IMG/VR virus record: IMGVR_UViG_3300045988_026856
Span: 1-44,632 of that record
DNA: 44,632 bases
From: a virus
Lineage: Duplodnaviria > Heunggongvirae > Uroviricota > Caudoviricetes
Strand: one strand, 5' to 3'
Made by a program: the position numbers and the translations under genes. How positions within the stretch are numbered: the first letter of the stretch is position 1; each line of letters opens with the position of its first letter. Shown here piece by piece: positions 1,234-42,250 of this stretch. The notes beneath the pieces were generated by a model, which worked only from the letters and a program-made list of their open reading frames with translations, was not told the DNA's origin and ran no database searches.

Positions 1234-1262
1234 TTGCGCACCCCAACATAATAGGTTACTAT
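1234..1262 (+). promoter_or_regulatory. early promoter TTGCGC-N17-TACTAT with AATAG-N4-CTATT inverted repeat over the -10
   Basis: Near-identical copy at 21655..21683 (minus) and related copy at 2714..2742. Confidence 0.45.
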
Positions 1263-1296
1263 TCACTTATCGGAACGAAACAGAGGAGTGAGGGTT

Positions 1297-1476
1297 ATGT
1301 TTAAACGTGGTCAAATCGCACGAGATAACAACGGTTCTATTTATTCTATCCGTAGCATGGAGATTTTTAACGGGTTCTATCGTGTGCAGGATGTTGTTTC
1401 AGGTAAGGTGCTTGTACGCCATGCTTCCAATTTAAAGCTCATCGGCAACAATTTTAAATTCAAAGGGGTGGAGTGA
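1297..1476 (+). CDS. hypothetical early protein (59 aa)
   Basis: ORF track; start refined to ATG after GAGGAG RBS. Confidence 0.5.
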   Translation: MFKRGQIARDNNGSIYSIRSMEIFNGFYRVQDVVSGKVLVRHASNLKLIGNNFKFKGVE

Positions 1477-1679
1477 TGATTAAGCTAGAGATTAAATCGA
1501 AAGAGACAAAACAAACTGTAGCCAGTAAAGAATTCAACGGTAAATCTGAAATAGGTCCTTGGCTAAAACAGTACGTACATTTACAGACGGTTTACATCCT
1601 TCTGACTAGCGACAGCGGTATAACTACCGAACTAACGGCATTGGATAAAGAGGGGCGAAGTGATGGAAGAATTATTTGA
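1476..1679 (+). CDS. hypothetical early protein (67 aa)
   Basis: ORF track; GGGGTGGAG RBS; start overlaps upstream stop. Confidence 0.5.
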   Translation: MIKLEIKSKETKQTVASKEFNGKSEIGPWLKQYVHLQTVYILLTSDSGITTELTALDKEGRSDGRII

Positions 1680-1866
1680 AGAACTGAAACATCATAGACT
1701 GGAGAAAGTGCATTTCCAGGTAAACAGATACGAAGTTGTTTTATTAGACGGCCCAACTATTTCTTCCGGGGTATGCGAAGACTTGCTAAAAGTTTTACGT
1801 GCGCTACGAACGGCATCGAATCATGATGCTCGTGCCGAAGACTCTGAGGGAGGTTGCCGTGAATAA
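1663..1866 (+). CDS. hypothetical early protein (67 aa)
   Basis: ORF track; GAGGGG RBS. Confidence 0.5.
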   Translation: MEELFEELKHHRLEKVHFQVNRYEVVLLDGPTISSGVCEDLLKVLRALRTASNHDARAEDSEGGCRE

Positions 1867-1926
1867 TTACCCGTTTATTTTAATTGTCAGCGCAGTTTAT
1901 GTGGTGCACGCGTTATGGGGGTTGGT

Positions 1927-2082
1927 ATGAGAATCCGTATAACTGACCGCAGGCTTATAGATTTCGGTATCTCGGTAGGTGATGTTTTTCTGGCGTTCAG
2001 CAGCAACCATTATGGTTTTATGATTGAGTACAAAGGGTCGTTATTGTTCGTGTATCGGGATGAATGCGAGGTTCTGGTATGA
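1927..2082 (+). CDS. hypothetical small protein (51 aa)
   Basis: ATG with G-rich RBS; stop overlaps next ATG; below ORF-track cutoff. Confidence 0.3.
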   Translation: MRIRITDRRLIDFGISVGDVFLAFSSNHYGFMIEYKGSLLFVYRDECEVLV

Positions 2083-2222
2083 GAGAAGCATTCGAACGGT
2101 GGGCCGTCGTCGAGGGTCTGCCGGTAAACAAGGGTTCAAAGAAAGAGTACCTGAACGCTAAGACACGTCTCGCGTGGCGGGCGTGGAAAGCTGGTGTGCA
2201 AACTGTGATGAATAGGGGGTGA
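2079..2222 (+). CDS. hypothetical small protein (47 aa)
   Basis: ATGA overlap with upstream ORF; tight packing. Confidence 0.3.
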   Translation: MREAFERWAVVEGLPVNKGSKKEYLNAKTRLAWRAWKAGVQTVMNRG

Positions 2223-2225
2223 GAT

Positions 2226-2411
2226 ATGGGTGAGTGGATTAAGTGTAGTGAGCGGATACCGGAGCCTTATGAATACGTTCTTGTAACTGATTGTTTTGTT
2301 GGCTGTGAGGTTATGCGTGTTAATTCAGATGGCTACTGGGGGCCTGCAAAGAGTTTATATCACGGTGATATAACGCACTGGATGCCATTACCGGGGCCGC
2401 CAGAAGTGTGA
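2226..2411 (+). CDS. DUF551-like phage protein (61 aa)
   Basis: W..C..R.PE....VLV...........W.......ITHWMPLPGPP pattern typical of DUF551 (from memory). Confidence 0.6.
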   Translation: MGEWIKCSERIPEPYEYVLVTDCFVGCEVMRVNSDGYWGPAKSLYHGDITHWMPLPGPPEV

Positions 2412-2713
2412 TGTTCAATAGTTTGGGATTTTACTGAGTGACTTACGCTGCTACACAGCAGCGTATCATTTTTCTCATTTTTGTTCTATTTCACCAAACG
2501 CAACAATCGAAGCGACTATTGCAGGAGATGCAACAATGAAACTGAATGACATCGTGACCTGGACCGGTAGAAACGGAGAAAAGCGATTCGGGCTTATTGT
2601 TGAGTCAGACGGCAACAAGTACCGTGTTATGCGATGGCGTCAGTGAGCACGCCGCCCGAGGTACTACTGGATTCGTGGCGAACGATTATCTTTAAAACAC
2701 CAATAAAATTTAC

Positions 2714-2742
2714 TTGCACACTGGGATAGAATAGGCTACTAT
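2714..2742 (+). promoter_or_regulatory. promoter TTGCAC-N17-TACTAT (same family as 1234..1262)
   Basis: Hexamers plus AATAGGCTACTATT inverted repeat; about 30 nt upstream of ORF at 2773. Confidence 0.4.
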
Positions 2743-2772
2743 TCATTTACACAAACGAGAGGAGAGACAGAG

Positions 2773-2940
2773 ATGAAAGCAGTAACTAAAGATGAGTTTT
2801 TCAGCACAGTAGAAGGTCTTATGTATAACATGGTTATTAATGCGGGTACGCCAGAGTCTATCTACATAGATAGCGGTAATAATCTTGTCGCTAAAGCAAC
2901 ATGGAGTTACCCGGAAACCGTGTATGAGGTTGCGCAATGA
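2773..2940 (+). CDS. hypothetical small protein (55 aa)
   Basis: GAGAGGAGAG RBS; stop overlaps next start (ATGA). Confidence 0.4.
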   Translation: MKAVTKDEFFSTVEGLMYNMVINAGTPESIYIDSGNNLVAKATWSYPETVYEVAQ

Positions 2941-3164
2941 CCCCCGCAAAAGCACGTGCGCTGTTACGCCGCAATGGGATTCTTGATGAGGTGGACATCC
3001 TTGTAGAGAAATACGGCATACACATGATAGGTCGCCAGCCGAAAGGCGATATGCGTTGGATGGCGGGGGTCCCCGGTACGCCAGGCGTGTCATACGGCGA
3101 CACATTAACCCATGCGGTCCATACTTACATTATTGAGTCGGTACTAGGAGAAACCAATGAGTAA
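2937..3164 (+). CDS. hypothetical protein (75 aa)
   Basis: ORF track; translational coupling. Confidence 0.5.
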   Translation: MTPAKARALLRRNGILDEVDILVEKYGIHMIGRQPKGDMRWMAGVPGTPGVSYGDTLTHAVHTYIIESVLGETNE

Positions 3165-3609
3165 CAAAAACGAAGTATTCGAGTACCTGATTGGCCAGTT
3201 ACGGCAGCAGGTAAATTGCAACCAGTGTGAAGACCTGGCGCACGAGGTGCAGTCACTTAAGAATCAGTTACGTGATATGTCGGAGCTGGTGGATGAGCTA
3301 CTGGGGACAATAACGTTAATGAACGGGAAATCTAGTCGCCGTAAGGAAGATACTCAGTACAACGCCTGGAGGCCGCATTATGGTGCACGACAACCTGTGC
3401 CGGATGGGACTATGGTATTTATCCGGTATCGCAACGGGGAGGAGCCGAAACACAGTGTAGCAGCAGAAAAGCGGTCGTGGATTTGGGATGGAACATACGC
3501 AGACATAGTGGAATACAAGATTGACACACAGGAATGTGAACATGACTATCGTTTGGTTCTGTGGTGTAGCGACTTACAGCAGTGCTCTAAATGCGGGGTG
3601 ATCAAATGA
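3157..3609 (+). CDS. hypothetical protein (150 aa)
   Basis: ORF track; AGGAG RBS. Confidence 0.55.
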   Translation: MSNKNEVFEYLIGQLRQQVNCNQCEDLAHEVQSLKNQLRDMSELVDELLGTITLMNGKSSRRKEDTQYNAWRPHYGARQPVPDGTMVFIRYRNGEEPKHSVAAEKRSWIWDGTYADIVEYKIDTQECEHDYRLVLWCSDLQQCSKCGVIK

Positions 3610-3809
3610 CCAGCATATTATTTATCTGGGTACTGTCCGCGGGCCAGATGCAACTAGCGGCAGCAGAAACGTTTTATTCGATGGAGGCGTGCCAGTCCGC
3701 GGCACGCGCCGCAGAGAACGCGCACTTCCTGTTTCAGGGCGACAAGCCAAACGATTCAGAGGTACGCGCTATCTGCTCACCTAAGCGACTTGGTAAACAG
3801 GAGAAGTGA
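3606..3809 (+). CDS. hypothetical protein with N-terminal hydrophobic segment (67 aa)
   Basis: ORF track, start refined to ATG at 3606; 3' end lies in the 46-bp repeat. Confidence 0.5.
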   Translation: MTSILFIWVLSAGQMQLAAAETFYSMEACQSAARAAENAHFLFQGDKPNDSEVRAICSPKRLGKQEK

Positions 3810-3814
3810 TTATG
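3769..3814 (+). repeat. 46-bp direct repeat, copy A (CTATCTGCTCACCTAAGCGACTTGGTAAACAGGAGAAGTGATTATG)
   Basis: 44/46 identical to 4182..4227; spans a gene 3' end, the RBS and the next start codon. Confidence 0.8.
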
Positions 3815-4117
3815 AGCGCCGAAGCGATGAAGAAAAAGGTTTTGAACGCTTTGCAAGAAGCAGTGAACTGTGGTGCCATTAAAACATTCACAGAAAGGCA
3901 CGTCGGTGAAGTGACAGTTCACTGCTTTAATAGTAACAAAAACGGAATTGTGGTCATCATGCTTTTAAGGAATAGCGATGATACAGCCATCCTTTACGCT
4001 GGCGGATATGAGCTTATCGTTGATGATTTATTCATCACTTGCGCTGACGGCCTTGACCCAATGTTAACGTTCGAGCGGCGCGGCATCCGTGTTGCAACGT
4101 TTGGAGGGAAGTTATGA
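3812..4117 (+). CDS. hypothetical protein (101 aa)
   Basis: ORF track; start refined to ATG after AGGAGAAG RBS. Confidence 0.5.
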   Translation: MSAEAMKKKVLNALQEAVNCGAIKTFTERHVGEVTVHCFNSNKNGIVVIMLLRNSDDTAILYAGGYELIVDDLFITCADGLDPMLTFERRGIRVATFGGKL

Positions 4118-4209
4118 CATCAAATCTTAAAGCCCGTTTATTACCCATAAAGCCTCACGTGCTGTATAAGATGGACCAGCTCTATCTGCTCACCCAAGCG
4201 ACTTGGTAA
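4114..4209 (+). CDS. hypothetical small protein (31 aa)
   Basis: GGAGGG RBS; overlaps upstream stop; 3' end lies in repeat copy B. Confidence 0.25.
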   Translation: MTSNLKARLLPIKPHVLYKMDQLYLLTQATW

Positions 4210-4227
4210 ACAGGAGAAATGATTATG
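4182..4227 (+). repeat. 46-bp direct repeat, copy B
   Basis: See 3769..3814. Confidence 0.8.
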
Positions 4228-4407
4228 GTACAGAGATATACCTACGACCAGATATTCGGGTTTACTCCCGATGTTGAGGGCGTGTTAGTGCTTTACGAAG
4301 ATTACGCGAAACTCGAAGCTGAGTTACAGAAATACAAAGACCAGTTCCCGGATTACGTCGAGTGCGCGAACTGTGGGTCAGTTACGCATGTGGAAGGGGT
4401 GGAGTGA
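4225..4407 (+). CDS. hypothetical protein (60 aa); paralog of 4407..4601
   Basis: Shared MVQRY...DY.KLEA.L motif with the next gene. Confidence 0.45.
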   Translation: MVQRYTYDQIFGFTPDVEGVLVLYEDYAKLEAELQKYKDQFPDYVECANCGSVTHVEGVE

Positions 4408-4601
4408 TGGTGCAGAGATATGAGGTAAAAGCGTGGGGCCTGCCAGAGCCTGAGATGGCTGAGTACGCATATGGCGATTATGTAGAATACGACGCTTATC
4501 TGAAACTTGAAGCAAAGTTACGTGAATTCGCTGAACAGGTAATGTACGAACCTTGTTCGAAAGTTACAGAAGAAATGGCCCGCGAGATTCTCGGAATATG
4601 A
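4407..4601 (+). CDS. hypothetical protein (64 aa); paralog of 4225..4407
   Basis: Start refined to internal ATG with GGGGTGGAG RBS. Confidence 0.45.
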   Translation: MVQRYEVKAWGLPEPEMAEYAYGDYVEYDAYLKLEAKLREFAEQVMYEPCSKVTEEMAREILGI

Positions 4602-4891
4602 GCCTTGCAACTGACATCCTGAAACGAAGCGGCCTTGCGCCGCTGTCACCGAGAGCTAAAACACAGATATACAAGCGTCGCCGTAACGCGCTGTACCCGG
4701 AGATTCAGGCCAGACGTAAAGCGGTCCGCGCCTGTGGATTCCAGAACGGGAAGGCCGTGAATCTCGGTGAGTTTAAAACACAAGAACGCGCCGCAATCGC
4801 TAATCGACTATTTAATTACTGGAAATCGCTGGGGTACGATGATATTCCGACGAAACCCCAGAGACGACAATACATCTGGAGACACAAATAA
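4598..4891 (+). CDS. hypothetical basic protein (97 aa), possible AP2-like DNA-binding fold
   Basis: Start refined to ATG overlapping upstream stop; NGKAVNLGEFKTQERAAIA segment weakly AP2-like. Confidence 0.45.
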   Translation: MSLATDILKRSGLAPLSPRAKTQIYKRRRNALYPEIQARRKAVRACGFQNGKAVNLGEFKTQERAAIANRLFNYWKSLGYDDIPTKPQRRQYIWRHK

Positions 4892-4966
4892 ACAACTATT
4901 AGGATAATTCCTACCCGTGGTATCCTCCAGTTACTGCATACTTAATACGCACCTGGAGGATTCATC

Positions 4967-5275
4967 TTGGATAAATTTACTGAAACAGTGACAGGCTGGC
5001 TTCTCGCTGCCGCGCTAGCCGGAGGGGTCATCGGACTACGACAACATAAGTCCGTTATTTCTGGACCCATCGACGGCTTATTCTTTATTGTAACCGGCTT
5101 CGCTTGCGCCGTATTCGGTGCGCCTCTCGCTGCCCAATGGTTCGGCATTACCGGGGAGCGTGAAATCGCTGGTCTGGGTTTCATCATCGCTATTCTCTGG
5201 ATGCCTATCTATTCCCGCCTCTCCGGTATCGTCGCCGGGGAATACATCTCACGTCGAGGAGGCCCGGATGAATGA
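4967..5275 (+). CDS. holin (3 predicted TM segments, charged C-terminus)
   Basis: TTG start after GGAGGA RBS; three hydrophobic helices; directly upstream of endolysin. Confidence 0.6.
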   Translation: MDKFTETVTGWLLAAALAGGVIGLRQHKSVISGPIDGLFFIVTGFACAVFGAPLAAQWFGITGEREIAGLGFIIAILWMPIYSRLSGIVAGEYISRRGGPDE

Positions 5276-5540
5276 GTTATTCTGGTTCGGCGGTATGCTG
5301 GCAATCGGGGGTACATCGCTGTTTAATGTGTACCATCCCAGCGTTGATGACGGGTTATTCGGTCGGGTGCTCTATATCCTGACTGCTATCGTCTGCGCCG
5401 CCGGATGTATCCACCTGTTACAGGGCAGCGTGTCACCAACGCTGCCTGAGACATTAATCACATTAGTTGCGCTGCGCCAGATTCGTCAGGCGTGGCTGTC
5501 ATACGGAGGACATAAGCGTGTCTCGAAATATTTCAGATAA
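5268..5540 (+). CDS. second holin-like / antiholin-like membrane protein (2 TM, 90 aa)
   Basis: ATG after GAGGAGG RBS, overlaps holin stop; two hydrophobic helices. Confidence 0.5.
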   Translation: MNELFWFGGMLAIGGTSLFNVYHPSVDDGLFGRVLYILTAIVCAAGCIHLLQGSVSPTLPETLITLVALRQIRQAWLSYGGHKRVSKYFR

Positions 5541-6003
5541 TGGACTGCATTTCACCGCCGCGTTCGAGGGGTTCCGTGGTACTGCATATCGTGCTACGCC
5601 AAATGAGAAGTACCTTACTATTGGATATGGGCATTACGGGCCGGACATAACACCGGGTAAGACCATCACGCCGGGACAGGGCCTTCTGTTACTGAATCGC
5701 GATATGGCTAAGGCCGTAGCCGCGGTTGACGCAGCGGCGCATCATTCATTGACACAGGCGCAGTTCGACGCCGTGTGCGACCTGGTCTATAACGCAGGTG
5801 CGGGTGTTATCGCGGCTACTACCGGCACCGGTAAGGCACTGCGCTCCGGTGATACCGCGACGCTGCGCGCTAAGCTGGCGCTGTTCATCAACCAGAACGG
5901 CAAACCATTACTCGGCTTGCGCCGCCGTACTGCGGGTCGTCTGGCGCTGTTCGACGGCAAACCGTGGCAAGAGGCTGAGGCTATCGGGAGGGCGGTTAAA
6001 TGA
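5518..6003 (+). CDS. endolysin, lysozyme-like (GH24-type)
   Basis: FEGFRGTAY...TIGYGH motif resembling phage lysozymes; probable GTG start after GGAGGA. Confidence 0.7.
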   Translation: MSRNISDNGLHFTAAFEGFRGTAYRATPNEKYLTIGYGHYGPDITPGKTITPGQGLLLLNRDMAKAVAAVDAAAHHSLTQAQFDAVCDLVYNAGAGVIAATTGTGKALRSGDTATLRAKLALFINQNGKPLLGLRRRTAGRLALFDGKPWQEAEAIGRAVK

Positions 6004-6092
6004 CAGAGATTGACTTCATTCTGTTGTCTATCGGAGTTGGTGCGGTAGTTGGCGCTTTCTGGGGTGCTATTGATGCGTTTCGCAAAGGTTGA
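6000..6092 (+). CDS. small hydrophobic peptide (30 aa)
   Basis: ATG overlapping endolysin stop; single TM-like segment. Confidence 0.3.
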   Translation: MTEIDFILLSIGVGAVVGAFWGAIDAFRKG

Positions 6093-6156
6093 CACCTGAG
6101 ACTAATCCGACGATACTTAAATCACCTCCTGTTCCATCCCTCTGCTCTCCAGTTTT

Positions 6157-6188
6157 ATCCCGGCCCTGACCCAGCCGGGATTTTTTTA
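6157..6188 (+). terminator. intrinsic terminator (ATCCCGGC-loop-GCCGGGAT + T7)
   Basis: Perfect 8-bp stem followed by TTTTTTT. Confidence 0.65.
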
Positions 6189-6209
6189 TCTATTTTCTGT
6201 AATGACTAG

Positions 6210-6238
6210 TTGACTATTACCTTAGACCCTATTATATT
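6210..6238 (+). promoter_or_regulatory. sigma70-like promoter TTGACT-N17-TATATT
   Basis: Hexamers with 17-nt spacer just after the terminator. Confidence 0.45.
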
Positions 6239-6271
6239 TACTCCATCGACAACGAGAACGGAGTAGAGAAG

Positions 6272-6397
6272 ATGAAATGCTTTGTTATTACAATTAACCC
6301 CTACGCCAAATATGGACCATTTAAAGACCAGATATCGGCTATTAAATACGGAAACTCTCTTAAGACGCGTTATAAAATAGTGTGGAAGGACTACTAA
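6272..6397 (+). CDS. hypothetical small protein (41 aa)
   Basis: GGAG RBS; coupled to next ORF. Confidence 0.3.
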   Translation: MKCFVITINPYAKYGPFKDQISAIKYGNSLKTRYKIVWKDY

Positions 6398-6546
6398 TGA
6401 AAATCACAGATATCGAGGCATTCAAAGACGCACAACTGATGGCCCGCATCGCCGTTAGTAAACTGAGCAACAGCATTCCAGCGTCCGCGTTCTGGTTCGC
6501 TGCGATGCAGACACTGAAAGCAGCTTATGCCGGAGAGAAGAAATGA
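6397..6546 (+). CDS. hypothetical small protein (49 aa)
   Basis: TAATG overlap; coupled chain. Confidence 0.3.
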   Translation: MKITDIEAFKDAQLMARIAVSKLSNSIPASAFWFAAMQTLKAAYAGEKK

Positions 6547-6701
6547 GCGAACAAGGTCAAGTAAGCCAACCGTTACGAGTAGGCCGTAAAGTCAGTCACA
6601 CCCCGTTCCCGACACGCGAGGAGCTGATGAAACGTAACAGTTTCCCGGGGCCGGACAAGAACAAGTATCTCAATCGCATGTGGGGAGAGCGTAAAGAATG
6701 A
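6543..6701 (+). CDS. hypothetical small protein (52 aa)
   Basis: ATGA overlaps on both sides. Confidence 0.3.
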   Translation: MSEQGQVSQPLRVGRKVSHTPFPTREELMKRNSFPGPDKNKYLNRMWGERKE

Positions 6702-6934
6702 CTGACCGTGAATACGAAAAGATGATGGTAGAGGCCGTTAACGGCGGCGTAGACGTAAGCCACGTGATGCACGTCCTGAATACTAAAATCGCAGTAGCGG
6801 AGCAAATGGTAGAGTCGCTTTACGAGACTCGCCGTGAACTGATTAACCGCTTCAACCTGAACAAGGGGTGCGCTATTTCTGACGATTTCGATGGGGATTA
6901 CCGAAATGGAGATTTTTATGAGGGGGCCGAATAA
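6698..6934 (+). CDS. hypothetical protein (78 aa)
   Basis: ORF track. Confidence 0.5.
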   Translation: MTDREYEKMMVEAVNGGVDVSHVMHVLNTKIAVAEQMVESLYETRRELINRFNLNKGCAISDDFDGDYRNGDFYEGAE

Positions 6935-7173
6935 TGCCTAAAATCACAATCGCATCGCTCGAGCGCCGTATTATGGTGCTTGAGTCAGAGAAACAGACGC
7001 TAGGCGGGCAACTGTCAATTAACGGTGAGTTTCAACTGGAGGCATTTAAGTTGTTGCTTGATAAGTTGAAAGAGGGTGAAAAGCCTTGTGCGCATGACTA
7101 CTACTTACATGTGGTTGGCGGGTTACATCGAGCCACGTGCATTAAATGTGGTGAAGCGTATGGAGTCGCCTAA
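6934..7173 (+). CDS. hypothetical protein (79 aa) with C..H...C..C motif
   Basis: ORF track. Confidence 0.5.
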   Translation: MPKITIASLERRIMVLESEKQTLGGQLSINGEFQLEAFKLLLDKLKEGEKPCAHDYYLHVVGGLHRATCIKCGEAYGVA

Positions 7174-7342
7174 GCCAGTAGTAATTGATGGCGTCCTGTG
7201 GAAACCCTACTCGGTTAACCACATCGACGCCGACGGGAAGAAGTTTAGCTTCTACATTTTTGCAATTAGCCGTGAGCACGCCGCTTGTGTGGTCGATGAT
7301 ATACGAGAAACGGCGTGGCTTGGCGATGAGGTAGTGGGGTGA
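7160..7342 (+). CDS. hypothetical protein (60 aa)
   Basis: Internal ATG of ORF 7076..7342. Confidence 0.4.
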   Translation: MESPKPVVIDGVLWKPYSVNHIDADGKKFSFYIFAISREHAACVVDDIRETAWLGDEVVG

Positions 7343-7344
7343 TT

Positions 7345-7754: not shown

Positions 7755-7847
7755 TCATCCCTAACGTCTGGGCTATCGCTGTAGCTAACAACCATTACGG
7801 CGGCGATGGTAAAAGAGCACCACGCAACGGCTTATATAACTGATACC

Positions 7848-9757: not shown

Positions 9758-9769
9758 GAGGATTATTCA

Positions 9770-12851: not shown

Positions 12852-13168
12852 AATGTCTGTTATTATTCCAGTTATTCCGCTCAATTGTAAATGTTGGAAT
12901 AAACTATTCGAATAGTTGACTTTTCACTAAAAATATGATAAGCTCCACCTGAGCTTGTGAAGTATGAACAAGCGACCGCGGCGCGGGCAGGTAACGGAGC
13001 GGGACGTAAGTCCTGAGTGTAGTTACGCTGACGCGTTCGGAAGGGCCATATTCTATTGCTTGTGTAAAAAGTAACTGGTTTACTGAGATTACGCCGTTTC
13101 TATGTTTAAATGATAAGGACTAGCGCCCCGCTTTAAGGCGGGGCTTTACTTATCAAGAAAGGGGAAAC

Positions 13169-21613: not shown

Positions 21614-21654
21614 GGGGTAGCTCCTGTTTGAGTTAACATTGTTGGTGTAAGTGA

Positions 21655-21683
21655 ATAGTATCCTATTATGTTGGGGTGTGCAA
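21655..21683 (-). promoter_or_regulatory. promoter TTGCAC-N17-TACTAT driving the minus-strand insert; near-identical to 1234..1262
   Basis: About 35-bp element shared with the early promoter at 1234..1262. Confidence 0.45.
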
Positions 21684-21790
21684 GTAATGTGTTAGAATTA
21701 TTTTGCGCCTAGTGTCGCACACGAAAAGCGGGTGGTTCCCGTCTGGCGCATTAACCTTAACCAGTAACCTCTTAACCAAAGGATTAAAGA

Positions 21791-25893: not shown

Positions 25894-25923
25894 AATCAAC
25901 CTCAATAAAGAGTATTAACTAGT

Positions 25924-25952
25924 ATACTATTCAACCATGGGGCCCGGGTCAA
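25924..25952 (-). promoter_or_regulatory. sigma70-like promoter TTGACC-N17-TAGTAT for the 24934..25893 gene
   Basis: Hexamers on minus strand about 30 nt upstream of the start. Confidence 0.4.
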
Positions 25953-33461: not shown

Positions 33462-34882
33462 TTCTTACCTCGTCTCTTCATGTAATTAAGCAATTCTTCC
33501 TGGACCGATTTCTTCTCGTCAGTACGCGCGGCAACAACCTCGTCCAGCGTGTCTTTAGCAACGATGTGGTAAAGGAATACCGGGCGCTCGTGTCCCGCCT
33601 GTTTCTGGCGTACCGGGCCTATACGCTCAACGACCTGCAAATAGTGCTCAAGGTTCCAGCCTTGTGAAATAAACGCCAGATGATGCCCACCGTCCTGTAA
33701 ATTGAGGCCGTGGCCCGCTGACGCCGGATGTACGCATAAGATTTCGATTTCACCGCGGTTCCACGCTTCCATCTGCTTATTGCCCTTAGCACCTTTTGCA
33801 AACGCCTGGGCTTGAGGGAATCGCTTAAGGATACGTTCCAGTTCGTGCTTGAACTGATAGGCGACCAGTAGCGGTGCGCCCTGTAACTCCTCGACAATGG
33901 ACTCAAGCGCATCCAGTTTCGTATCGTGCACTTTCTCCCAGTCTTTGGTTGCTTCTCCGTCCGGCCCCGACACATACACGGCACCAGATGCAATCTGCAA
34001 ACACTTCGACGTCTTCGCCGCTGCGTTAGCTGCTTCAACTTCTCCGCTCTCCAGTTCTGCAAATAGCTTCTCCTCCATATCTATGTACGCCTGACGCGCT
34101 TTCTTCGGCAGGTCGATTTCAACCGGTACGATAATCGGCGCTTCACAACCGAACCACTCAGCGGCGTCAATCGTGAGACTAATGTCCTTCATCTTCTGGT
34201 GAATCTCAGTATCCGCGCCCGGGCGGGCGTGATACTCTCGTGCCATAGCGGACTTACCCTTCTGTACCGAATTAAACCAGCGGTCGGTGAACGCGGTGTA
34301 TGAAGAACCCAGGCGCTCGCCAGCGTCGATAAACCAGTTCTGGCCCCACAGGTCTTTGAGGCCATTTGGTGATGGCGTACCGGTAAGGTTGATGAAACGC
34401 TTAACCTTACCGAATGCCACTTTACTAAGCGCCTTTGCCCGCTTGCTGCCACCTGAACGGCTACGGAAAGATTTCAGTTTCGTGCTTTCATCGGCAACAA
34501 TAACCGTAAAAGGCCAGTCGTCTTTGCCGTAGTAGTCAATCAGCCACTCGATAACTTCGTAGTTAGTGCACACCACGTTAGCATCTGACTCCAGCGCCGC
34601 GATGCGGCGCTTCTCTGAACCGGTCGCATCTACGACACGCAGACACGGGAAACCCCACTTAGTTTGTTCTGAGGGCCATGTGCCGGACGCAACACGTAAA
34701 GGGGCCAGAATTAACACTCTGTCGCCGTCGTTAAGCTGACCATTACGGAACAGCCTGTTCAACGCCCACAGTACGCTGCCAGTCTTCCCGGCGCCCATGC
34801 TTGCCCAAATATTACAGCGAGGGTGCTGCAACATGAACGAAGTCATGAGCTTTTGGTACTCGCGCCTTTGGAACCTACTCAT
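33458..34882 (-). CDS. SF2 (SNF2/DEAD-like) helicase
   Basis: Walker A GAGKTG and DEST box (VIVADESTKLK). Confidence 0.8.
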   Translation of the reverse strand: MSRFQRREYQKLMTSFMLQHPRCNIWASMGAGKTGSVLWALNRLFRNGQLNDGDRVLILAPLRVASGTWPSEQTKWGFPCLRVVDATGSEKRRIAALESDANVVCTNYEVIEWLIDYYGKDDWPFTVIVADESTKLKSFRSRSGGSKRAKALSKVAFGKVKRFINLTGTPSPNGLKDLWGQNWFIDAGERLGSSYTAFTDRWFNSVQKGKSAMAREYHARPGADTEIHQKMKDISLTIDAAEWFGCEAPIIVPVEIDLPKKARQAYIDMEEKLFAELESGEVEAANAAAKTSKCLQIASGAVYVSGPDGEATKDWEKVHDTKLDALESIVEELQGAPLLVAYQFKHELERILKRFPQAQAFAKGAKGNKQMEAWNRGEIEILCVHPASAGHGLNLQDGGHHLAFISQGWNLEHYLQVVERIGPVRQKQAGHERPVFLYHIVAKDTLDEVVAARTDEKKSVQEELLNYMKRRGKK

Positions 34883-35669
34883 TTACCGCCCCCATGAATG
34901 CCTTTATAAATTCAGCGGCTACTTGCGGGACGATGGCATTGCCGTAACCGCGCAATCGTCCCACTCTGGCGGGTACCCCATTAGCCAGCGGGAATGTGCT
35001 GGGTTCAACTGGCCTGAATTTCCCATCCCGGCATCCGAGCCAGTCAGCATCTGACCAGAACCCGTTAGGCGGATTGGCTGTGCCAGAGATGCCTCTGTTT
35101 GCAGATTGTGGCCCCCGTTCCTGCCCTGATGGCCTGCTCCCGCCGAGTTGTTCGCACACGGTGTTGGCCAGTTGCTGCGCTCCGAAGAACAATCGATTCC
35201 TTTTGTGCGGTGCGCCGACGCTACAAGCTGGGAGTACGGCAAACCCGACGGCGTAGTCTTCTCTTTCCAGGTGAGTTTGTAAATCGCACATCCACGATTT
35301 TGCAATTGCTGCCGCAACCTGCTCCCCAAAGATAACTGGAGGGCGGCACTCGCTGATGAGGTCGAGGAACACAGGTGCGAGGTGTCTCTGGTCGAACTGT
35401 CCGAGTTGCTTTCCTGCCGTGCTAAACGGTTGGCAAGGCGGGCTTCCCGTCCAGAGAGGCGCATCTTCCGGAACTCCAGCAAGTCTGAGCGCGAGAGGCC
35501 AGCCGCCGATACCAGCGAAAAAATGACACTGGGTGAACCCGTCAAGGTCTTCTGGTCTAACTTCGGTAATGCTTCTTTCATCTACAACTCCAAAAGGTAT
35601 GTGACCCTGTTTTATTAATTCACGCAGCCACGCGGCTGCGCCTTTATCCCATTCGTTGTAATAGTTCAT
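34875..35669 (-). CDS. DNA (cytosine-5)-methyltransferase, orphan
   Basis: Motif I FAGIGG, motif IV PCQPFS, HKRNR, C-terminal GNAIVPQV; no restriction partner nearby. Confidence 0.8.
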
Positions 35670-35857: not shown

Positions 35858-35887
35858 TTCTCAATTCCTTATATTGTTGGTGTGTGA

Positions 35888-36175
35888 TTAACTATAATAG
35901 CTCGCTATTAGGTCGTCAACCTGTTTAAACGAACCAACGACAAAAACATTTGCACCACGTTTGCTCATCCGCTCGTGCTCTCGTAGCTGATGCGGGTCTG
36001 GCTTCGTGTTTTCGTCTTTCTTAACCTCGACAAACCAGACTATGCCGCCTGGGAGAATTACCAGCAGGTCAGGAGCGCCCGCTCTATTTTCGTAGGAAAG
36101 TTTACGAACGAGGCCGCCAATGGCCTCGAATTGCTCTTTTGCGTATTTCTGCACACGCCCCTCAGGCGTACTCAT
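35888..36175 (-). CDS. VRR-NUC domain nuclease
   Basis: GAPDLLVILPGGIVWFVEVKK...Q motif. Confidence 0.7.
   Translation of the reverse strand: MSTPEGRVQKYAKEQFEAIGGLVRKLSYENRAGAPDLLVILPGGIVWFVEVKKDENTKPDPHQLREHERMSKRGANVFVVGSFKQVDDLIASYYS
35891..35919 (-). promoter_or_regulatory. promoter TTGACG-N17-TATAGT with AATAG-N4-CTATT in spacer
   Basis: Same family as 39845..39873 and 42178..42206. Confidence 0.45.
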
Positions 36176-36256
36176 CTACGCACCCCTCACGTTTCGTATG
36201 CTCAATCCCGCAGCGCGGACAGATTCGGCAGTCTTCTTCGTAGAACCAGTAAATTT

Positions 36257-36388
36257 TCATTCCGGCACCCACAGATAAATTGCGATGAACATACCCAATA
36301 CGGCTACCATCATGCCGTATTGCCCCTCGTGACAGTAGACACCGGCGGCGAATCCCGCCAGTACCGCGATACTTAGTTTACTTAGCAT
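36257..36388 (-). CDS. small membrane protein (43 aa)
   Basis: ATG after GGAGG RBS; hydrophobic. Confidence 0.35.
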   Translation of the reverse strand: MLSKLSIAVLAGFAAGVYCHEGQYGMMVAVLGMFIAIYLWVPE

Positions 36389-36389
36389 T

Positions 36390-36905
36390 CTAACCTCCGT
36401 GATTCTCATGAAAGCCGTAGCGAACAATCGCAGATTTCCGTGCACAAGCCGCGTCAAATATATTGTCATGATGCCCCAGGAATATAAGTTTACCACCAAC
36501 AAATATACATGCTTTCCATTTAGCCGCTCGTGCGTTCCAGTGCACACCTGTGATACCTGACTTGTTATCTTTTCTCCGAGATGCGTTTCTGTTGTTATCA
36601 GTACGGGATACTTTACGAAGGTTGCATGCACGATTATCATCCAGGATGTGATTTATATGGTCTACTTCATCGTCAGGCCCTAAACGGTCATTGTTATGCA
36701 TCTCCCACGCGATGCGATTAGCCCTGTAACTAACCCCTCTGACGACGATACAGATGTAGCCCCTCTTACTTGGGCTACCGGCTTCGTCTCCGGCGTTTAT
36801 ACTGTGCCTCGGGGAATACTTCCATCGTATCTTCCCCGTGTCAGGTTCGTAGTAGAAATGGTCATGCCAATTAATTAAATCTCTCATAAACCACCCCATC
36901 ATCAT
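36390..36905 (-). CDS. HNH homing endonuclease with AP2-like DNA-binding domain
   Basis: VDHINHILDDNRACNLRKVSRTDNN HNH motif; GITGVHWNARAAKWKA...GKLIFLG AP2-like. Confidence 0.8.
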   Translation of the reverse strand: MMMGWFMRDLINWHDHFYYEPDTGKIRWKYSPRHSINAGDEAGSPSKRGYICIVVRGVSYRANRIAWEMHNNDRLGPDDEVDHINHILDDNRACNLRKVSRTDNNRNASRRKDNKSGITGVHWNARAAKWKACIFVGGKLIFLGHHDNIFDAACARKSAIVRYGFHENHGG

Positions 36906-39103
36906 TTAGCATATCTGTACATTTCGCTACCTTCCGCTACAAGAGGGAACCCCTCCGCCCACTCTGGCAACGCACACATTAATTTTTCCAGTTCAGGCAC
37001 CGTGTAATCCGGCGTATCTGGAGTTTCACATACCAGTTCATCGTGTACCGAAAGCACGATGGGATACCCGCCACCCTCAACATTAATCATCGCATATGCG
37101 AGTAAATCACGGCACAGCGCCTGAACAATGTTTTCGCAGGCTTTGCCGCCGTGGGTGTACAGGGTAGTCCATTGGCGGGTTAACTGGTTTTCACCCTGAT
37201 ACTTGATTCGCACATTCGTGTTTACCCGTCCGTCTTCGTCTGTTTCTTTTGTCACGCTAACGCCGATTCCTGGATACGAGAGGATACGGCCCGACGGCAA
37301 CTCCATACACAACCACCAACCGGGAACCTTCCTACCGGATGAATCGGTTTCTACTGTTCTCCAGATTCGGATAGCGCGCTCGCCATTCTTGCGCAGATGC
37401 GCCCCCGCCCAAAATTCACGACCCGGATTTCTTACAGCGGCTAAAATACCGTCTTTGAGGTCGCGCCAGAACGCTACTGTTTCCGGGTGTGACTCGCGCC
37501 ACATACGCTTGATTGCGTCGCAGGTGCGCCACACTTTCTTGTCCAGAATATACGATGGTCGGTCATCCTTCTCACCTGGATGCGGGGGGCGCTTGGCTTC
37601 CTGGATGCGCGCCCATTCATATCCTCTCGCGGTGGCTGACCAGATGTGGTCCGGGAATGTACCGTCCATTGTTTTAGCCATCTCAATAAGGTCGAGGCCT
37701 AAGTTTTTGGCGAACGTAACGAATGCTCCGACGCCTCCCTCGTAGCCGAGGCCCAGTTCGCATGCTTTGCCTATCTGTCTGATTTCCTTAAAGTTTTTCT
37801 TAATATCGTCGGGGTCCATGCCAAACATCTTACCTGCAGTTACGCAATAAATATCCAACCCGGCGCGGAAAGTATCAAGCGCGGTTTCTTCGCCTGCCAA
37901 CCACGCAAGCCCACGACCCTCAACGTTAGAGTAATCGGCAACAACAAACTTATGCCCCACTTCCGGTATGATGCAGCTACGTACCGTCGATGCCGTTAGC
38001 TTGGCTACATCAAAACGGCGGTGTGCCCGGCCTTTAAGTAACGCTGAAATGCCTTTATCCAGTTCATCATCGTGATAGTACCCGCGCGCCAGGTTCTGTG
38101 GTTGGAAGCCTTTACCCGCCCACCGCAAAGTGCGTTTTGCCCCACCGTACTGTAAACAACCCCGGCGGCGGTCGTCCGATGAGCGGCCCAACAGCAGTGG
38201 GTTATATTTCGTTGACGCGGTGGATGCGGCCCCGAGGCGCATTTCGATAATCGTGCGAGCATCGTCCGGTAAATCATCGTCCGCCAGCAGGTCGTTAAGC
38301 GTAGACTTCTGCGCGTTGTGGATGCGGTGCGCAGGGGCCAGTTCACGAAGAATCGGCAGAAAGTCCTTACCAGTAAGCGAGCCGCCGTATTTGCGTTGGG
38401 CTTCCTCCTGTAACTGCGCTTTGTGTTTCTCCACGGCTTCAATAGCGGCTTCCGCCAGTGCAACGTCAACCTTAAACCCGCGGTCGTTGATTAACTGGTC
38501 CAGTTCCAGTACACGGTCTTCGAACTCAGAGTTACCCCAACGCGGCAGCTTATGGAAGACTTCACGCATCGCAGTGATGTCGCTCACGGCGTACTTGATG
38601 AACCGCGCCCACTCGTCCGGGTGTGTTTCTGCGGTGTAGCGGCGGATTTTGTAATTCTTCGGTGTCGGTTTAGAGAAACGCTGAATCAGCGCCTTGCCGC
38701 GTTTATCTTTTGCATTGTCAGCAGACACGCCAAGCACTTCACACAGCGCATCAAGCGAACCCGGCAGCGCGTGACGAAACGCCCAAATCATCGTATCAAT
38801 GGTGTTGCTTACGGGAATATCAAAGCCCCAGCAGTGTTTCATGATGGGCCTATCGAACATTGAGCCGTTGTGCCACACCATCTTAATACGACTGTTTGGC
38901 TTAACCAGCCGGCGCAAGGCGCGGTGCAAATCGCCCGGCATGTCACTGCCGTCGGTGCAGTCCCATGCCTGCACAGGCTCGTCGTCAAAAGCATAGGTAC
39001 AGATAAGCACTTCGGTAGTTGGGTGTTCGGCGTAAGCGTAGGAGCCGACTTTCTTCAAATCGGCTTCGGAGAATGTTTCAAAGTCTAAGAACAGGTAACT
39101 CAT
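36902..39103 (-). CDS. family A DNA polymerase with 3'-5' exonuclease domain
   Basis: N-terminal FLDFETFS exonuclease motif; DYSNVEGR motif A-like. Confidence 0.85.
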   Translation of the reverse strand: MSYLFLDFETFSEADLKKVGSYAYAEHPTTEVLICTYAFDDEPVQAWDCTDGSDMPGDLHRALRRLVKPNSRIKMVWHNGSMFDRPIMKHCWGFDIPVSNTIDTMIWAFRHALPGSLDALCEVLGVSADNAKDKRGKALIQRFSKPTPKNYKIRRYTAETHPDEWARFIKYAVSDITAMREVFHKLPRWGNSEFEDRVLELDQLINDRGFKVDVALAEAAIEAVEKHKAQLQEEAQRKYGGSLTGKDFLPILRELAPAHRIHNAQKSTLNDLLADDDLPDDARTIIEMRLGAASTASTKYNPLLLGRSSDDRRRGCLQYGGAKRTLRWAGKGFQPQNLARGYYHDDELDKGISALLKGRAHRRFDVAKLTASTVRSCIIPEVGHKFVVADYSNVEGRGLAWLAGEETALDTFRAGLDIYCVTAGKMFGMDPDDIKKNFKEIRQIGKACELGLGYEGGVGAFVTFAKNLGLDLIEMAKTMDGTFPDHIWSATARGYEWARIQEAKRPPHPGEKDDRPSYILDKKVWRTCDAIKRMWRESHPETVAFWRDLKDGILAAVRNPGREFWAGAHLRKNGERAIRIWRTVETDSSGRKVPGWWLCMELPSGRILSYPGIGVSVTKETDEDGRVNTNVRIKYQGENQLTRQWTTLYTHGGKACENIVQALCRDLLAYAMINVEGGGYPIVLSVHDELVCETPDTPDYTVPELEKLMCALPEWAEGFPLVAEGSEMYRYAK

Positions 39104-39162
39104 TATTTTCGACCCTTAGTAAAAAGGCCCAATGAAGGGCCTTAGTTAAATTGATTCAGATA

Positions 39163-39789
39163 TTAGCGACGGCGACGTTCGCGGCGTGGTGCTTCATCTT
39201 CTTCGTCATCCTCAAGGTCATTGACGCTTGCAGCGACTTTAGAACCACCGAACGCTTTACCTTCGCCTACGTATTTAATCGCCAGCAGGTTAACCCCGAG
39301 AACTTTATATTTCTGGCTGAACCAGATTTCGACGCTTACGTTAGCGACGCAGCCGCTGTAAACTTGTTCACCTTCAATCTGTTCGCCGTCTACATTGAAG
39401 TCCTGCTCTACCTGAGTCTCACCTTTTTTAGAGGTAACAATCAGCGGCTGTTTCTGTGCCTTCGCTTTGAAGTAGAAGCCCTCCGGGAAGTCTTCAAACG
39501 GATTGTCACGCTCAGCAATGTCTTTAATCGCACATTTATCCATGTGCTTACCTTCGCCGTAGTTAGACTTCATCCACTTCTCAGCGGCGGCTGCACCTAA
39601 CGCTTCTTCAACTACAGCGTAAACGGTGTCGTAGAGCGCGTCGATTTGCGCGTGGTCGGACGGCAGGATAATAGTCGCGCTGTACTGACCTTTAGTGATT
39701 GAACCATCATCATTTTCACGGTCTTTTTCGCGTTCGAATACGTTAACCCAAGCAGTGTTTACTTTACGCAGATTTAATTTCAGCCCCAT
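39163..39789 (-). CDS. DUF2815-like protein (putative ssDNA-binding)
   Basis: Position between Pol A and DUF2800-like nuclease; GAGGAA RBS. Confidence 0.55.
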   Translation of the reverse strand: MGLKLNLRKVNTAWVNVFEREKDRENDDGSITKGQYSATIILPSDHAQIDALYDTVYAVVEEALGAAAAEKWMKSNYGEGKHMDKCAIKDIAERDNPFEDFPEGFYFKAKAQKQPLIVTSKKGETQVEQDFNVDGEQIEGEQVYSGCVANVSVEIWFSQKYKVLGVNLLAIKYVGEGKAFGGSKVAASVNDLEDDEEDEAPRRERRRR

Positions 39790-39844
39790 TTCTCGATTCC
39801 TCAGTTTTCAGTTTACTCCGGGAGCTGCCCGGCCAGTGATTAGA

Positions 39845-39873
39845 ACTATAATAGCTAACTATTCAGGTGTCAA
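39845..39873 (-). promoter_or_regulatory. promoter TTGACA-N17-TATAGT with AATAG-N4-CTATT
   Basis: Consensus -35, 17-nt spacer. Confidence 0.45.
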
Positions 39874-39877
39874 CACT

Positions 39878-41140
39878 TTATTCCAAATCTTCTTCACTAA
39901 CCTGATTCCACTCAGGCCGTTTGTCGTCTGCCGTTGTGATGCATGGGGCACCTGGCTTACGTGTGATGAAGTCTTTCAGTTCTTCTTCCGGTATCACTTT
40001 AACAGCTTCGGTTGGCGTCATGAGCACTTCTTTAGTCAGCTTGTCGCCGTAGAGTTCTGTTACTTTCTCCGCGTCTTTCCACGCACGATTGCCCATCTTA
40101 CCTTCAACCAGCTTGTACCCAGGAACTTTCTTACCGGAATGCAACGCGGCAGCCATAGCTTTCTCAACCTTATCGATGTGCTGGCGCAACAGCGGCAGCT
40201 TCTCATACTCAGCTACGAGTTGCTCCGGCGTAAGTTCCAGTGCAAAGTCGTCTTCCAGTTCTTCCGCCAGTACAGAATTAACCGTCTTTGTGCGCGCTGC
40301 GCACTGTTCAGAGAACCGGCACCACTGACAACCATCTACGGACGGCTTGAAGTCAGACGCTTTCAGGTTCTTCTTGCCGCGGTAATACGCATCAAGGGCC
40401 AACAGTGCACGTTTCTGTGCGAACTTAGCGAACAGTTCCAAACCTTCAACCGAGATGTCCCACTCCGACGCACCCCCGGCATACGGCTGGAAGATTACCA
40501 GGCGCACGACTGTGATGTTATACCGTCTCTTGAGCCGGCGATAAACACCGAGAGCGTAAAGCATAAGCTGCTTGTTTTCTTTCGCTTCTACACGATGCCG
40601 TCCTGTTTTCAGGTCGCCAATGATTAGCATATGCTCATCGGTGTTAGCCAGTTCCTGAACGGCAACAAGGTCGGCGGTTCCGAACGTCTCAACGCCTTCG
40701 TAACCAGGATGCAACACCTCAGTAAGATTTACCCGCATCTCGAGCTTGGCATAAGTCGCTACGTCTATAATCGCTTTGCAGTAGTCGGTGTACTTGCGCA
40801 CCTGCTCAATCATGTCCGCCGTGATTAGTACAGCGCCTTTCATCGGACTAATTAGCGCCTTAATCTGGCCTTTACCCTCGTCCAGCACGTAAGCGCCGAC
40901 TTCACGCTCTAGCGGCAGTGCATTGCCGCGGATATAGGCGTTGAGATGTACCTCAGCTATGGTGTGCATAGCCGTGCCTAATACCGCGGCTTTACCGGAC
41001 GTGTTGGGGATATCTTTCTCACAGGCCAGTGATGCGGCGCAGCTTAGCCACTTTTTAGCCCCGGACGGCGATAGTAAAGCGTGTACGTCGTTATTGCCAC
41101 CGCGTTCTTTTAGTTTCATGCTCTTAAACTCCCACCCCAT
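39878..41140 (-). CDS. PD-(D/E)xK / Cas4-like nuclease (DUF2800-like) with C-terminal Cys cluster
   Basis: LLSPSGAKKWLSCAASL start region; CQWCRFSEQC; likely true start at 41119 (GGAG RBS). Confidence 0.65.
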   Translation of the reverse strand: MGWEFKSMKLKERGGNNDVHALLSPSGAKKWLSCAASLACEKDIPNTSGKAAVLGTAMHTIAEVHLNAYIRGNALPLEREVGAYVLDEGKGQIKALISPMKGAVLITADMIEQVRKYTDYCKAIIDVATYAKLEMRVNLTEVLHPGYEGVETFGTADLVAVQELANTDEHMLIIGDLKTGRHRVEAKENKQLMLYALGVYRRLKRRYNITVVRLVIFQPYAGGASEWDISVEGLELFAKFAQKRALLALDAYYRGKKNLKASDFKPSVDGCQWCRFSEQCAARTKTVNSVLAEELEDDFALELTPEQLVAEYEKLPLLRQHIDKVEKAMAAALHSGKKVPGYKLVEGKMGNRAWKDAEKVTELYGDKLTKEVLMTPTEAVKVIPEEELKDFITRKPGAPCITTADDKRPEWNQVSEEDLE

Positions 41141-41314
41141 TTAACTTTACGCGTTTTGCGTTTATATGCGCACGTGTCGCCGCTACGGTTGAATATAATC
41201 AGCCAAGTCGAGTTGCTTACTCGAAAAGGCTGGTGGCGTTTAATAAAGAGAAGTCGCGCTTTACGGTTCGTCATTCTGTAAACTCCTAAATCCACGCGAA
41301 ATCAGAATACATAA

Positions 41315-41593
41315 TTACAAACATGCTCTGTTCTCCCACTGGTCAATTAAATGTCTGGTCTGGTGCTGGCAATGCATGGCCCATCCATACATCGACTCGA
41401 AGACATAAAAGTCAGGCTTGGCAAAAGTCGTGCGCTTAATCTGCGACACATGACGGCCTATATCTTTAGCCCGCGGTACTTTGCCTAAGTACGCCATCTC
41501 TTCCATCTGGTGCGCACCTGACGGCGCACGCAACAGCCACAACGCCTCTGTGTTATCCCGCCTGTCAACGGCGCGGTAGAGTTGGTAAATCAT
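41315..41593 (-). CDS. hypothetical protein (92 aa)
   Basis: ORF track; GAGGG RBS. Confidence 0.5.
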   Translation of the reverse strand: MIYQLYRAVDRRDNTEALWLLRAPSGAHQMEEMAYLGKVPRAKDIGRHVSQIKRTTFAKPDFYVFESMYGWAMHCQHQTRHLIDQWENRACL

Positions 41594-41636
41594 AATTACG
41601 ACCCTCAGTTAAAGCGGCCCGAAGGCCGCGAGATAA

Positions 41637-42146
41637 TTATTCTTCTTCGAAATACTTGTTCTTGATTGCTGTCAGGCGTTCCAGGTACTCGGCCAGGTCT
41701 TCGTCTTTAATCGCGGCAATCTTCATCTTCTTACCTGTGAACTCTTCCAGCAGTTCATCAGAATCGTCGCACGCGGCATCGCTCGGACCTTCGTTAATTG
41801 CATCGTCGATAGCCTGAATCTGGTCACGAAGAGACTGGTAATCGACCTCTTCTTTCTCTTCTTCTGGTTCTGGCGTCGACTCCTCTACTTTAGCTTTACG
41901 CTGCTTACGTTTTGGCTTCTCTTCTTCTGCCGGTTTAGTGTCGACGATGTCTTCACCTTCTACCGGGATTTCTTTCCCGATACCAGTGCCTGGGTCGACT
42001 TCAAGTACCTCCCCCGTAACCGATACGTCTACAAGCATTTCACCTACATGCTCAGTTGGGGCCACAGGACGTTTTGCACTGTTCGCAGCAATCAGTTCAT
42101 GTGCAACTACGAAACGTTCCAGTAATACTAAGAATTTCTCTAACAT
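41637..42146 (-). CDS. highly acidic protein (169 aa), first gene of the leftward operon
   Basis: D/E-rich C-terminal half; immediately downstream of tandem promoters. Confidence 0.55.
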   Translation of the reverse strand: MLEKFLVLLERFVVAHELIAANSAKRPVAPTEHVGEMLVDVSVTGEVLEVDPGTGIGKEIPVEGEDIVDTKPAEEEKPKRKQRKAKVEESTPEPEEEKEEVDYQSLRDQIQAIDDAINEGPSDAACDDSDELLEEFTGKKMKIAAIKDEDLAEYLERLTAIKNKYFEEE

Positions 42147-42177
42147 TTGTTTCTCTCCTCTCGTTTGGTATGGGCTA

Positions 42178-42206
42178 ACTATAATAGTGAACTATTCACA
42201 TGTCAA
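42178..42206 (-). promoter_or_regulatory. promoter TTGACA-N17-TATAGT with AATAGTTCACTATT palindrome
   Basis: Consensus -35, 17-nt spacer. Confidence 0.5.
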
Positions 42207-42221
42207 TGGGCTTTTCTAAAA

Positions 42222-42250
42222 TAATTAATATGGTACTATTCACATATCAA
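42222..42250 (-). promoter_or_regulatory. second tandem copy (TTGATA-N17-TAATTA); promoter or operator
   Basis: 16-bp direct repeat of ACTATTCACAT(G/A)TCAA 44 bp from the first copy. Confidence 0.3.

Follow-up and report, generated by a model that had tools for sequence, protein, structure and literature searches.

Why do several promoters of one phage genome carry the same short inverted repeat at or next to their -10 region, and which protein would recognise it? The question is raised by the 44,632-bp window analysed here (the whole of IMG/VR record IMGVR_UViG_3300045988_026856). An initial annotation had described at least six sigma-70-like promoters in it which share the repeat AATAG-N4-CTATT, and had read the repeat as the operator of a dimeric repressor, with a small XRE regulator or an AlpA-like protein as candidate binders. 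Our analysis points to seven such elements, termed A to G in the following (Table 1). They are probably read by the sigma-70 polymerase of the host, the phage being a lytic Kagunavirus, and each lies under a 14-bp operator to which, most likely, a dimer of the XRE protein binds.

A search of the whole genome for the exact repeat returned six copies (starting at 1250, 2730, 21654, 35896, 39850 and 42183) where 0.02 are expected. None of 100 shuffled sequences reached this number, and a repeat family of at least six members is real. With up to one mismatch 13 copies are found versus 1.15 expected. Unbiased scans of all 5-mer inverted repeats (gaps of 0 to 8) and of all 5-mer dyads rank AATAG-N4-CTATT first, above the terminator hairpins, and in a general repeat search the promoter blocks represent the two largest direct-repeat families as well as the two longest inverted pairs. 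The near-identity noticed previously between the elements at 1234 and 21655-21683 extends over 37 nt at 95% (A, 1233-1269; C, 21648-21684). B and C are 81% identical over 47 nt, G and F 84% over 25 nt. Alignment of the seven sites yields an asymmetric 18-bp motif, TGAATAGT-N3-CTATTAT, whose 14-bp core is the palindrome, i.e. two half-sites of 5 bp separated by four central bases (5-4-5). Coding regions take up 91% of the genome. Of the seven strong sites only D reaches into a gene, covering the final codons of its upstream neighbour; the other six lie entirely between genes.

Each of the seven sites coincides with predicted promoter elements, either hexamers 17 nt apart or an extended -10, and two architectures can be distinguished. 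In D, E and F the motif runs along the direction of transcription and fills the spacer of TTGAC(A/G)-N17-TATAGT promoters, which are the best sigma-70 matches of the minus strand (10-11 of 12 positions). In A, B, C and G it is oriented opposite to transcription and covers the -10 (TACTAT in A, B and C). The hexamers and 17-nt spacers originally given for A, B, D, E and F are present at their coordinates, and the repeat does overlap or abut the -10 as described, by a single base in the case of D, E and F. The element at 21655-21683 had been listed as TTGACR/TATAGT, however it reads TTGCAC-N17-TACTAT and thus groups with the two plus-strand sites. Two orientations combined with two offsets speak for the site of a separate protein rather than for an element recognised by a polymerase, which would keep one of each.

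The region 42222-42250 had been regarded as a tandem second copy of the promoter at F. It is indeed a tandem duplicate of F, but the repeat is imperfect (AATAT...CTATT) and the minus strand offers only TTGATA-18-AATTAT, so that a plus-strand promoter of the XRE gene is the better reading. The extended -10 is found 32 nt before the XRE start codon, and the centre of G is 44 bp away from the centre of F. At the equivalent position upstream of the XRE ortholog Jerseyviruses show TGTACTAT and Cornellviruses TGTATACT or TGTATATT. Since all three genera (Kaguna-, Jersey- and Cornellvirus) keep the extended -10, we propose from the sequence that G represents the XRE gene's own, self-repressed promoter with a weaker operator rather than a second leftward promoter.

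To follow the repeat across relatives, the window was compared with Escherichia phage vB_EcoS_XY1 (XY1), the Jerseyvirus SE2, the Cornellvirus Shemara and 73 IMG/VR loci that encode XRE relatives. Conservation of the single sites was evaluated in MAFFT alignments of 27-33 distinct Kagunavirus orthologs per site, whereby indels occur at F and G. Half-site columns are invariant in 66 of 70 cases with a mean minor-allele fraction of 0.003. The corresponding values are 11 of 28 and 0.076 for the central four bases, and 161 of 280 and 0.053 for the 20-bp flanks. Fixed arms around a variable centre would be expected of a 434-type operator, whose outer bases, but not its centre, are contacted by the protein.

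In each of the Kaguna- and Jerseyvirus loci AATAG-N4-CTATT ranks first among the inverted repeats. When up to one mismatch is allowed, SE2 exhibits seven sites where 1.2 are expected, and these correspond in position to A/B, C, D, E, F and the candidate at 6205; hence the regulon is seemingly older than the split of Kagunavirus and Jerseyvirus. In the Cornellvirus Shemara the repeat is not found at all, even at one mismatch. Instead five exact copies of ATTAG-N4-GTAWT and additional near-matches reside at the corresponding promoters, including the one of the single-stranded DNA (ssDNA)-binding protein gene, one divergent from the XRE gene and the XRE gene's own. Over all fetched loci the AATAG motif occurs 200 times and the ATTAG motif never in Kaguna- and Jerseyviruses, versus 0 and 13 times in Cornellviruses.

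The XRE gene encodes 71 amino acids with an HTH_3 domain (PF01381, E = 2.3e-12, 47 bits at a cut-off of 23). Its nearest solved relatives are Cro of phage 434 (also 71 amino acids; phmmer E = 8e-6), the N-terminal domain of 434 cI and C2 of phage P22. The AlphaFold2 model (pLDDT 85) is a five-helix bundle that matches 434 Cro (2cro/3cro) with a Foldseek TM-score of 0.77-0.79; P22 C2, SinR and controller proteins of restriction-modification (R-M) systems were matched as well. Both F and G fall into the 124-bp region upstream of the gene, an arrangement kept in all three genera. Taken together, the conserved half-sites, their two orientations and positions, the 14-bp 5-4-5 geometry and a 434-Cro-like protein encoded alongside support the initial assumption of an operator whose half-sites would be bound by a dimeric helix-turn-helix repressor.

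Unrelated phages encode more distant XRE relatives, with 5-N4-5 repeats of their own beside the genes. Examples are TAAAG-N4-CTTTA (locus L052, 1878-1937) and TGTAG-N4-CTACA (locus L065, 9878-10322). The former is present in two copies 46 bp apart upstream of the gene (-99 and -53) and in two more 2 kb away. The palindromes of these two loci could form a comparative specificity set for this repressor clade.

Table 1. Predicted promoters, operators and the proposed regulator gene in the window.
Feature	Position	Strand	Elements	Genes downstream, remarks
Predicted promoter/operator A	1234..1263	+	-35 TTGCGC 1234-1239; -10 TACTAT 1257-1262; core 1250-1263 over -10	Small early open reading frames (ORFs), ~1297 to 2411; orthologs in 32 relatives, half-sites invariant
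Predicted promoter/operator B	2714..2743	+	-35 TTGCAC 2714-2719; -10 TACTAT 2737-2742; core 2730-2743	Genes from 2773 on: small ORFs, then lysis genes
Predicted promoter/operator C	21654..21683	-	-35 TTGCAC 21683-21678; -10 TACTAT 21660-21655; core 21654-21667	Superinfection-immunity gene 21613-21422 and metallophosphatase/nuclease cluster to 20025
Predicted promoter/operator D	35891..35919	-	-35 TTGACG 35919-35914; -10 TATAGT 35896-35891; core 35896-35909 in spacer	35857-33276: small ORF, C5 methylase, SNF2/DEAD helicase
Predicted promoter/operator E	39845..39873	-	-35 TTGACA 39873-39868; -10 TATAGT 39850-39845; core 39850-39863 in spacer	ssDNA-binding protein gene 39789-39163 and DNA polymerase gene
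Predicted promoter/operator F	42178..42206	-	-35 TTGACA 42206-42201; -10 TATAGT 42183-42178; core 42183-42196 in spacer	42146-39878: unknown ORFs, DUF2800 nuclease; divergent from XRE gene
Predicted operator G	42227..42240	+	One-mismatch repeat AATATGGTACTATT over extended -10 TGGTACTAT (42231-42239)	
XRE/HTH_3 gene, proposed repressor	42271..42486	+		71 amino acids, 434-Cro-like by sequence, length and predicted fold
Candidate weak operator	6205..6218	+	ACTAGTTGACTATT, one mismatch, over -35 of TTGACT-17-TATATT 6210-6238	
Candidate weak operator	25918..25931	-	AATAGTATACTAGT (minus strand), one mismatch, over -10 of TTGACC-17-TAGTAT 25952-25924	
Promoter-like sequence	21633-21661	+	TTAACA-17-TAGTAT, -10 within operator C	Faces tail-assembly-chaperone/tape-measure operon from 21791

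We consider it unlikely that the operator is occupied by a different protein; the candidates would be the AlpA-like HTH_17 protein (631-815, minus strand), a regulator of the host or some other small protein of the phage. The AlpA-like protein does contain a helix-turn-helix and is conserved in Kaguna- and Jerseyvirus at 64-86%, most of the small ORFs have no assigned function, and the XRE recognition helix co-varies imperfectly with the operator. However, the whole Shemara genome holds no homolog of the AlpA-like protein but keeps a related operator family. Moreover the AlpA-like gene lies without a nearby operator, whereas the XRE gene is flanked by two in all three genera. HTH_17 or excisionase-type proteins are not known to bind 14-bp palindromes of 5-4-5 layout, as 434-type Cro proteins do. 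A host factor is disfavoured because the motif tracks the lineage of the phage and not its host: Jersey- and Cornellviruses both infect Salmonella and differ in their motifs, while Kagunaviruses (E. coli) and Jerseyviruses (Salmonella) share one. Of the two binders suggested in the initial annotation, comparison of the sequences hence favours XRE, since two operators adjoin its gene in each of the three genera, the operator changes where XRE has diverged and the AlpA-like homolog is missing from the Cornellvirus.

The similarity between the sites could also go back to duplicated promoter-leader cassettes, the repeat itself being an incidental, unbound A/T-rich sequence that resembles a -10. 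Copying of whole cassettes is suggested by the long identities of A with C (37 nt) and of B with C (47 nt) as well as by a 24-nt leader common to B and F, and words like CTAT or TATAG do look like -10 hexamers. This explanation is nevertheless quite improbable. The left arm AATAG is invariant though it is located in the spacer, where sigma-70 promoters lack sequence constraint, and the central four bases vary between sites and between relatives while both arms are fixed. In addition, the motif faces opposite ways in the two promoter classes, and it is kept at corresponding sites across genera in otherwise diverged intergenic DNA, with both arms changing in the Cornellvirus.

With regard to the leaders themselves, those of B and F (2752-2775 and 42144-42167) are 88% identical over 24 nt (CAAACGAGAGGAGAGA...) running to the ATG, and the leaders of C and D (21641-21650 and 35872-35882) have ACACCAACAAT in common. 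This suggests either copied cassettes of promoter, leader and ribosome binding site (RBS) or a conserved 5' UTR (untranslated region) element. The intergenic stretch that precedes the spanin genes has three half-sites in a row (12902-12924); an everted perfect palindrome, AACTATTCGAATAGTT (CTATT-N2-AATAG order), there abuts the one-mismatch operator AATAGTTGACTTTT.

The motif as a sequence has been reported before. Seven PHIRE copies with the consensus tgAATAGTa-ccTATTat-T were listed for the close relative fBC-Eco01 and attributed to a phage-encoded RNA polymerase (PMC9825357), and seven PHIRE promoters were described for vB_EcoS-Golestan (PMC7203180). These "promoters" are the same motif, and neither paper relates it to the XRE gene or mentions the palindrome; no other paper doing so was found in our literature search either. 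The attribution to a phage polymerase is untenable and such promoters have practically no chance of being the explanation, because no RNA polymerase gene is found (all ORFs of at least 350 amino acids are otherwise assigned, and the annotations of XY1, SE2 and Shemara list no such gene) and because the motif occurs in both orientations at two offsets from good sigma-70 hexamers. A function as RNA hairpin was rejected as well, since the repeat of D, E and F is located upstream of the predicted transcription start and its arms comprise only 5 A/T-rich base pairs.

Assuming repression by XRE at host sigma-70 promoters, we propose the following course. At infection host RNA polymerase would fire A to G, including the extended -10 promoter of the XRE gene. 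Accumulating XRE would then occupy the operators and exclude the polymerase either at the -10 (A, B, C and G) or in the spacer between -35 and -10 (D, E and F). Through the operators with a perfect core the early operons of small ORFs (A, B), the nuclease/superinfection-immunity operon (C) and the three replication operons (D, E, F), and with them recombination functions, would be turned down. The XRE gene's own promoter would be repressed last via the weaker one-mismatch operator G. Overall this would resemble negative control of the Cro type without a cI partner. Moreover operator C may control divergent early and late promoters.

Several observations weigh against XRE as the binder and against this course of events. 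The co-variation of operator and XRE consists of a single evolutionary switch, Cornellvirus versus the rest. The recognition helix reads SQGAINQL in the window, SQSLITHL in Jerseyvirus and TQSAISHL in Shemara (XRE 41% identical), i.e. the Jerseyvirus helix is nearer to the one of Cornellvirus than to the one of Kagunavirus, yet Jerseyvirus has the Kagunavirus operator. The Cornellvirus motif is an imperfect palindrome. Many small ORFs conserved in the subfamily have no assigned function, and one of these could be the binder. Furthermore weak operator-like sites are present at promoters facing late genes (21633-21661 on the plus strand, 6205 and 25918), which implies that a simple role in early shut-off may be incomplete. 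Finally, there is no operator on the AlpA-like/primase operon or on the strong promoter at 911-940.

The window corresponds to a complete phage genome. It is ~90% identical to the Escherichia phages vB_Eco_ORH_001, EC3-1 and vB_EcoS_XY1 over most of its length, and is assigned to the genus Kagunavirus, subfamily Guernseyvirinae, by means of these relatives. Positions 1-55 and 44578-44632 are 100% identical, indicating a circularly closed assembly with a 55-nt overlap and hence a true genome length of 44,577 bp. The layout is typical of the Kagunavirus group: the plus strand carries small early ORFs followed by lysis, packaging, head and tail genes, the minus strand the nuclease cluster (21613-20025) and the replication genes (42146-33276), and the primase-helicase operon spans the window ends. 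A second HTH_3 protein was not found among ~30 ORFs scanned, some small ORFs being outside that scan. An integrase is not annotated in XY1, SE2 or Shemara, and neither an opposing cI repressor nor the integration or maintenance functions of a temperate cI/Cro switch were identified.

Regarding the weak candidates, the one at 6205 has a corresponding copy in XY1 and SE2, and the one at 25918-25931 sits upstream of a gene on the minus strand (25905-24934). The latter encodes a 323-amino-acid protein with CapR/zinc-ribbon and T5orf172/MUG113 (GIY-YIG-like) domains and represents a homing-endonuclease-like insert between the tape-measure and the distal tail genes, where XY1 has a different gene. 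Operon D includes a C-5 cytosine DNA methylase (34875-35669, minus strand) for which a restriction partner is not recognisable; it is presumably an orphan that counters restriction and is controlled by the operator.

The best sigma-70 match of the plus strand (TTGAAA-18-TATAAT, 911-940; 11 of 12 positions) is followed by no convincing ORF. Downstream of it a long perfect hairpin (~969-1000) and then a terminator (1140-1161) are located, between the AlpA-like gene and promoter A. The region 947-1170 folds with a z-score of -4.45, and Rfam yielded no match there or anywhere else in the window. The plus-strand region 911-1165 may thus represent a phage small RNA. Further downstream two successive small genes (3806 and 4219) each have their RBS and ATG at the end of one copy of a 49-nt direct repeat (3766-3814 and 4179-4227, 94% identical).

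The Guernseyvirinae find use in therapy and count as strictly lytic. A single Cro-like repressor could in principle silence the whole genome, so that the phage would persist without integration, as an episome or in a carrier state, although we hold this to be rather doubtful. Its basis may lie in operators on essentially every major early or middle promoter together with weak ones near late operons. Such a state would explain a "plasmid" of clinical origin, reported turbid plaques and the reported immune "lysogens" of the Jerseyvirus SGP-C. The plasmid record (CP088689.1; pC16EC0033-2, from a clinical blood isolate of E. coli) is a complete circular Kagunavirus genome of 44,086 bp, ~90% identical to the window, with eight exact operators and one G-like; it reflects either phage carriage in culture or contamination. 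A search of 5,426 complete E. coli genomes found no Kagunavirus prophage. SGP-C has been called temperate or episomal in a paper which speculates, from weak evidence, that XRE is "Cro" and that "cI" is the HTH_17 protein (PMC8790156).

What emerges is a concrete, predicted regulatory map for a large group of widely used therapeutic phages of E. coli and Salmonella, comprising seven operators, one proposed regulator and two promoter architectures. It also corrects a mislabel in the literature, the "phage RNA polymerase promoters" of genomes that encode no such polymerase. Moreover AATAG-N4-CTATT (Kaguna- and Jerseyvirus) and ATTAG-N4-GTAWT (Cornellvirus) offer a natural specificity pair for a change of a 434-type repressor and its operator. 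Interest is modest unless the regulon lets these phages, whose lifestyle is assumed to be strictly lytic, enter a repressed carrier state; if the repressor does silence the genome, this bears on the safety assumption of strict lysis. In an RNA sequencing study of phage K1B4 one of four "early" genes was a helix-turn-helix gene (gene 008; PMC12645636).

Among known systems, the stoperators of mycobacteriophage L5 gp71 share with the elements described here that one phage repressor is served by many sites genome-wide. L5 stoperators, however, are asymmetric 13-bp sites inside transcription units which occur in one orientation and block elongation, whereas the sites of the window are palindromic and located on promoters. 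The controller proteins C.AhdI and C.BclI with their C-boxes are likewise single HTH_3 domains of similar size and fold (TM-score 0.77-0.80), with paired palindromes upstream of their own gene and self-regulation, which is proposed here. In contrast to these, the targets would be seven operons and not one R-M cassette, and no sign of the activator function typical of C proteins is seen. The XRE gene is flanked by the primase-helicase and unknown ORFs; a distance of 6.6 kb separates it from the only methylase gene of the window, for which no partner endonuclease was identified.

C2 and Cro of P22 as well as lambda Cro are small phage helix-turn-helix proteins that lower early promoters via overlying palindromic operators, as proposed for XRE, and P22 C2 is a detectable relative in both sequence and fold. 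Those temperate phages have two operator clusters (OL and OR), whereas at least seven separate promoters and no lysogeny module are found here. Phage 434 differs in a similar manner. No partner cI or bistable switch was found in the window. Two operators lie 44 bp apart on back-to-back promoters instead of three adjacent ones, and at least five more are spread across the 44.6 kb of a phage considered strictly lytic. The half-site is AATAG instead of ACAA(G/T), and the recognition helix differs. Nevertheless the likeness to 434 Cro reaches from the protein (71 amino acids, HTH_3, five-helix fold, 36-40% identity in structural alignments) to the DNA. The 434 operators are 14-bp inverted repeats of 5-4-5 layout, and in both phages the outer bases are conserved around a variable centre. 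The 434 operators overlap promoters, one of them that of the regulator itself; those of the window overlap predicted promoter hexamers, and G would cover the proposed promoter of the XRE gene. The system is thus most likely a Cro/cI-type repressor-operator circuit, conserved but conventional in its mechanism.

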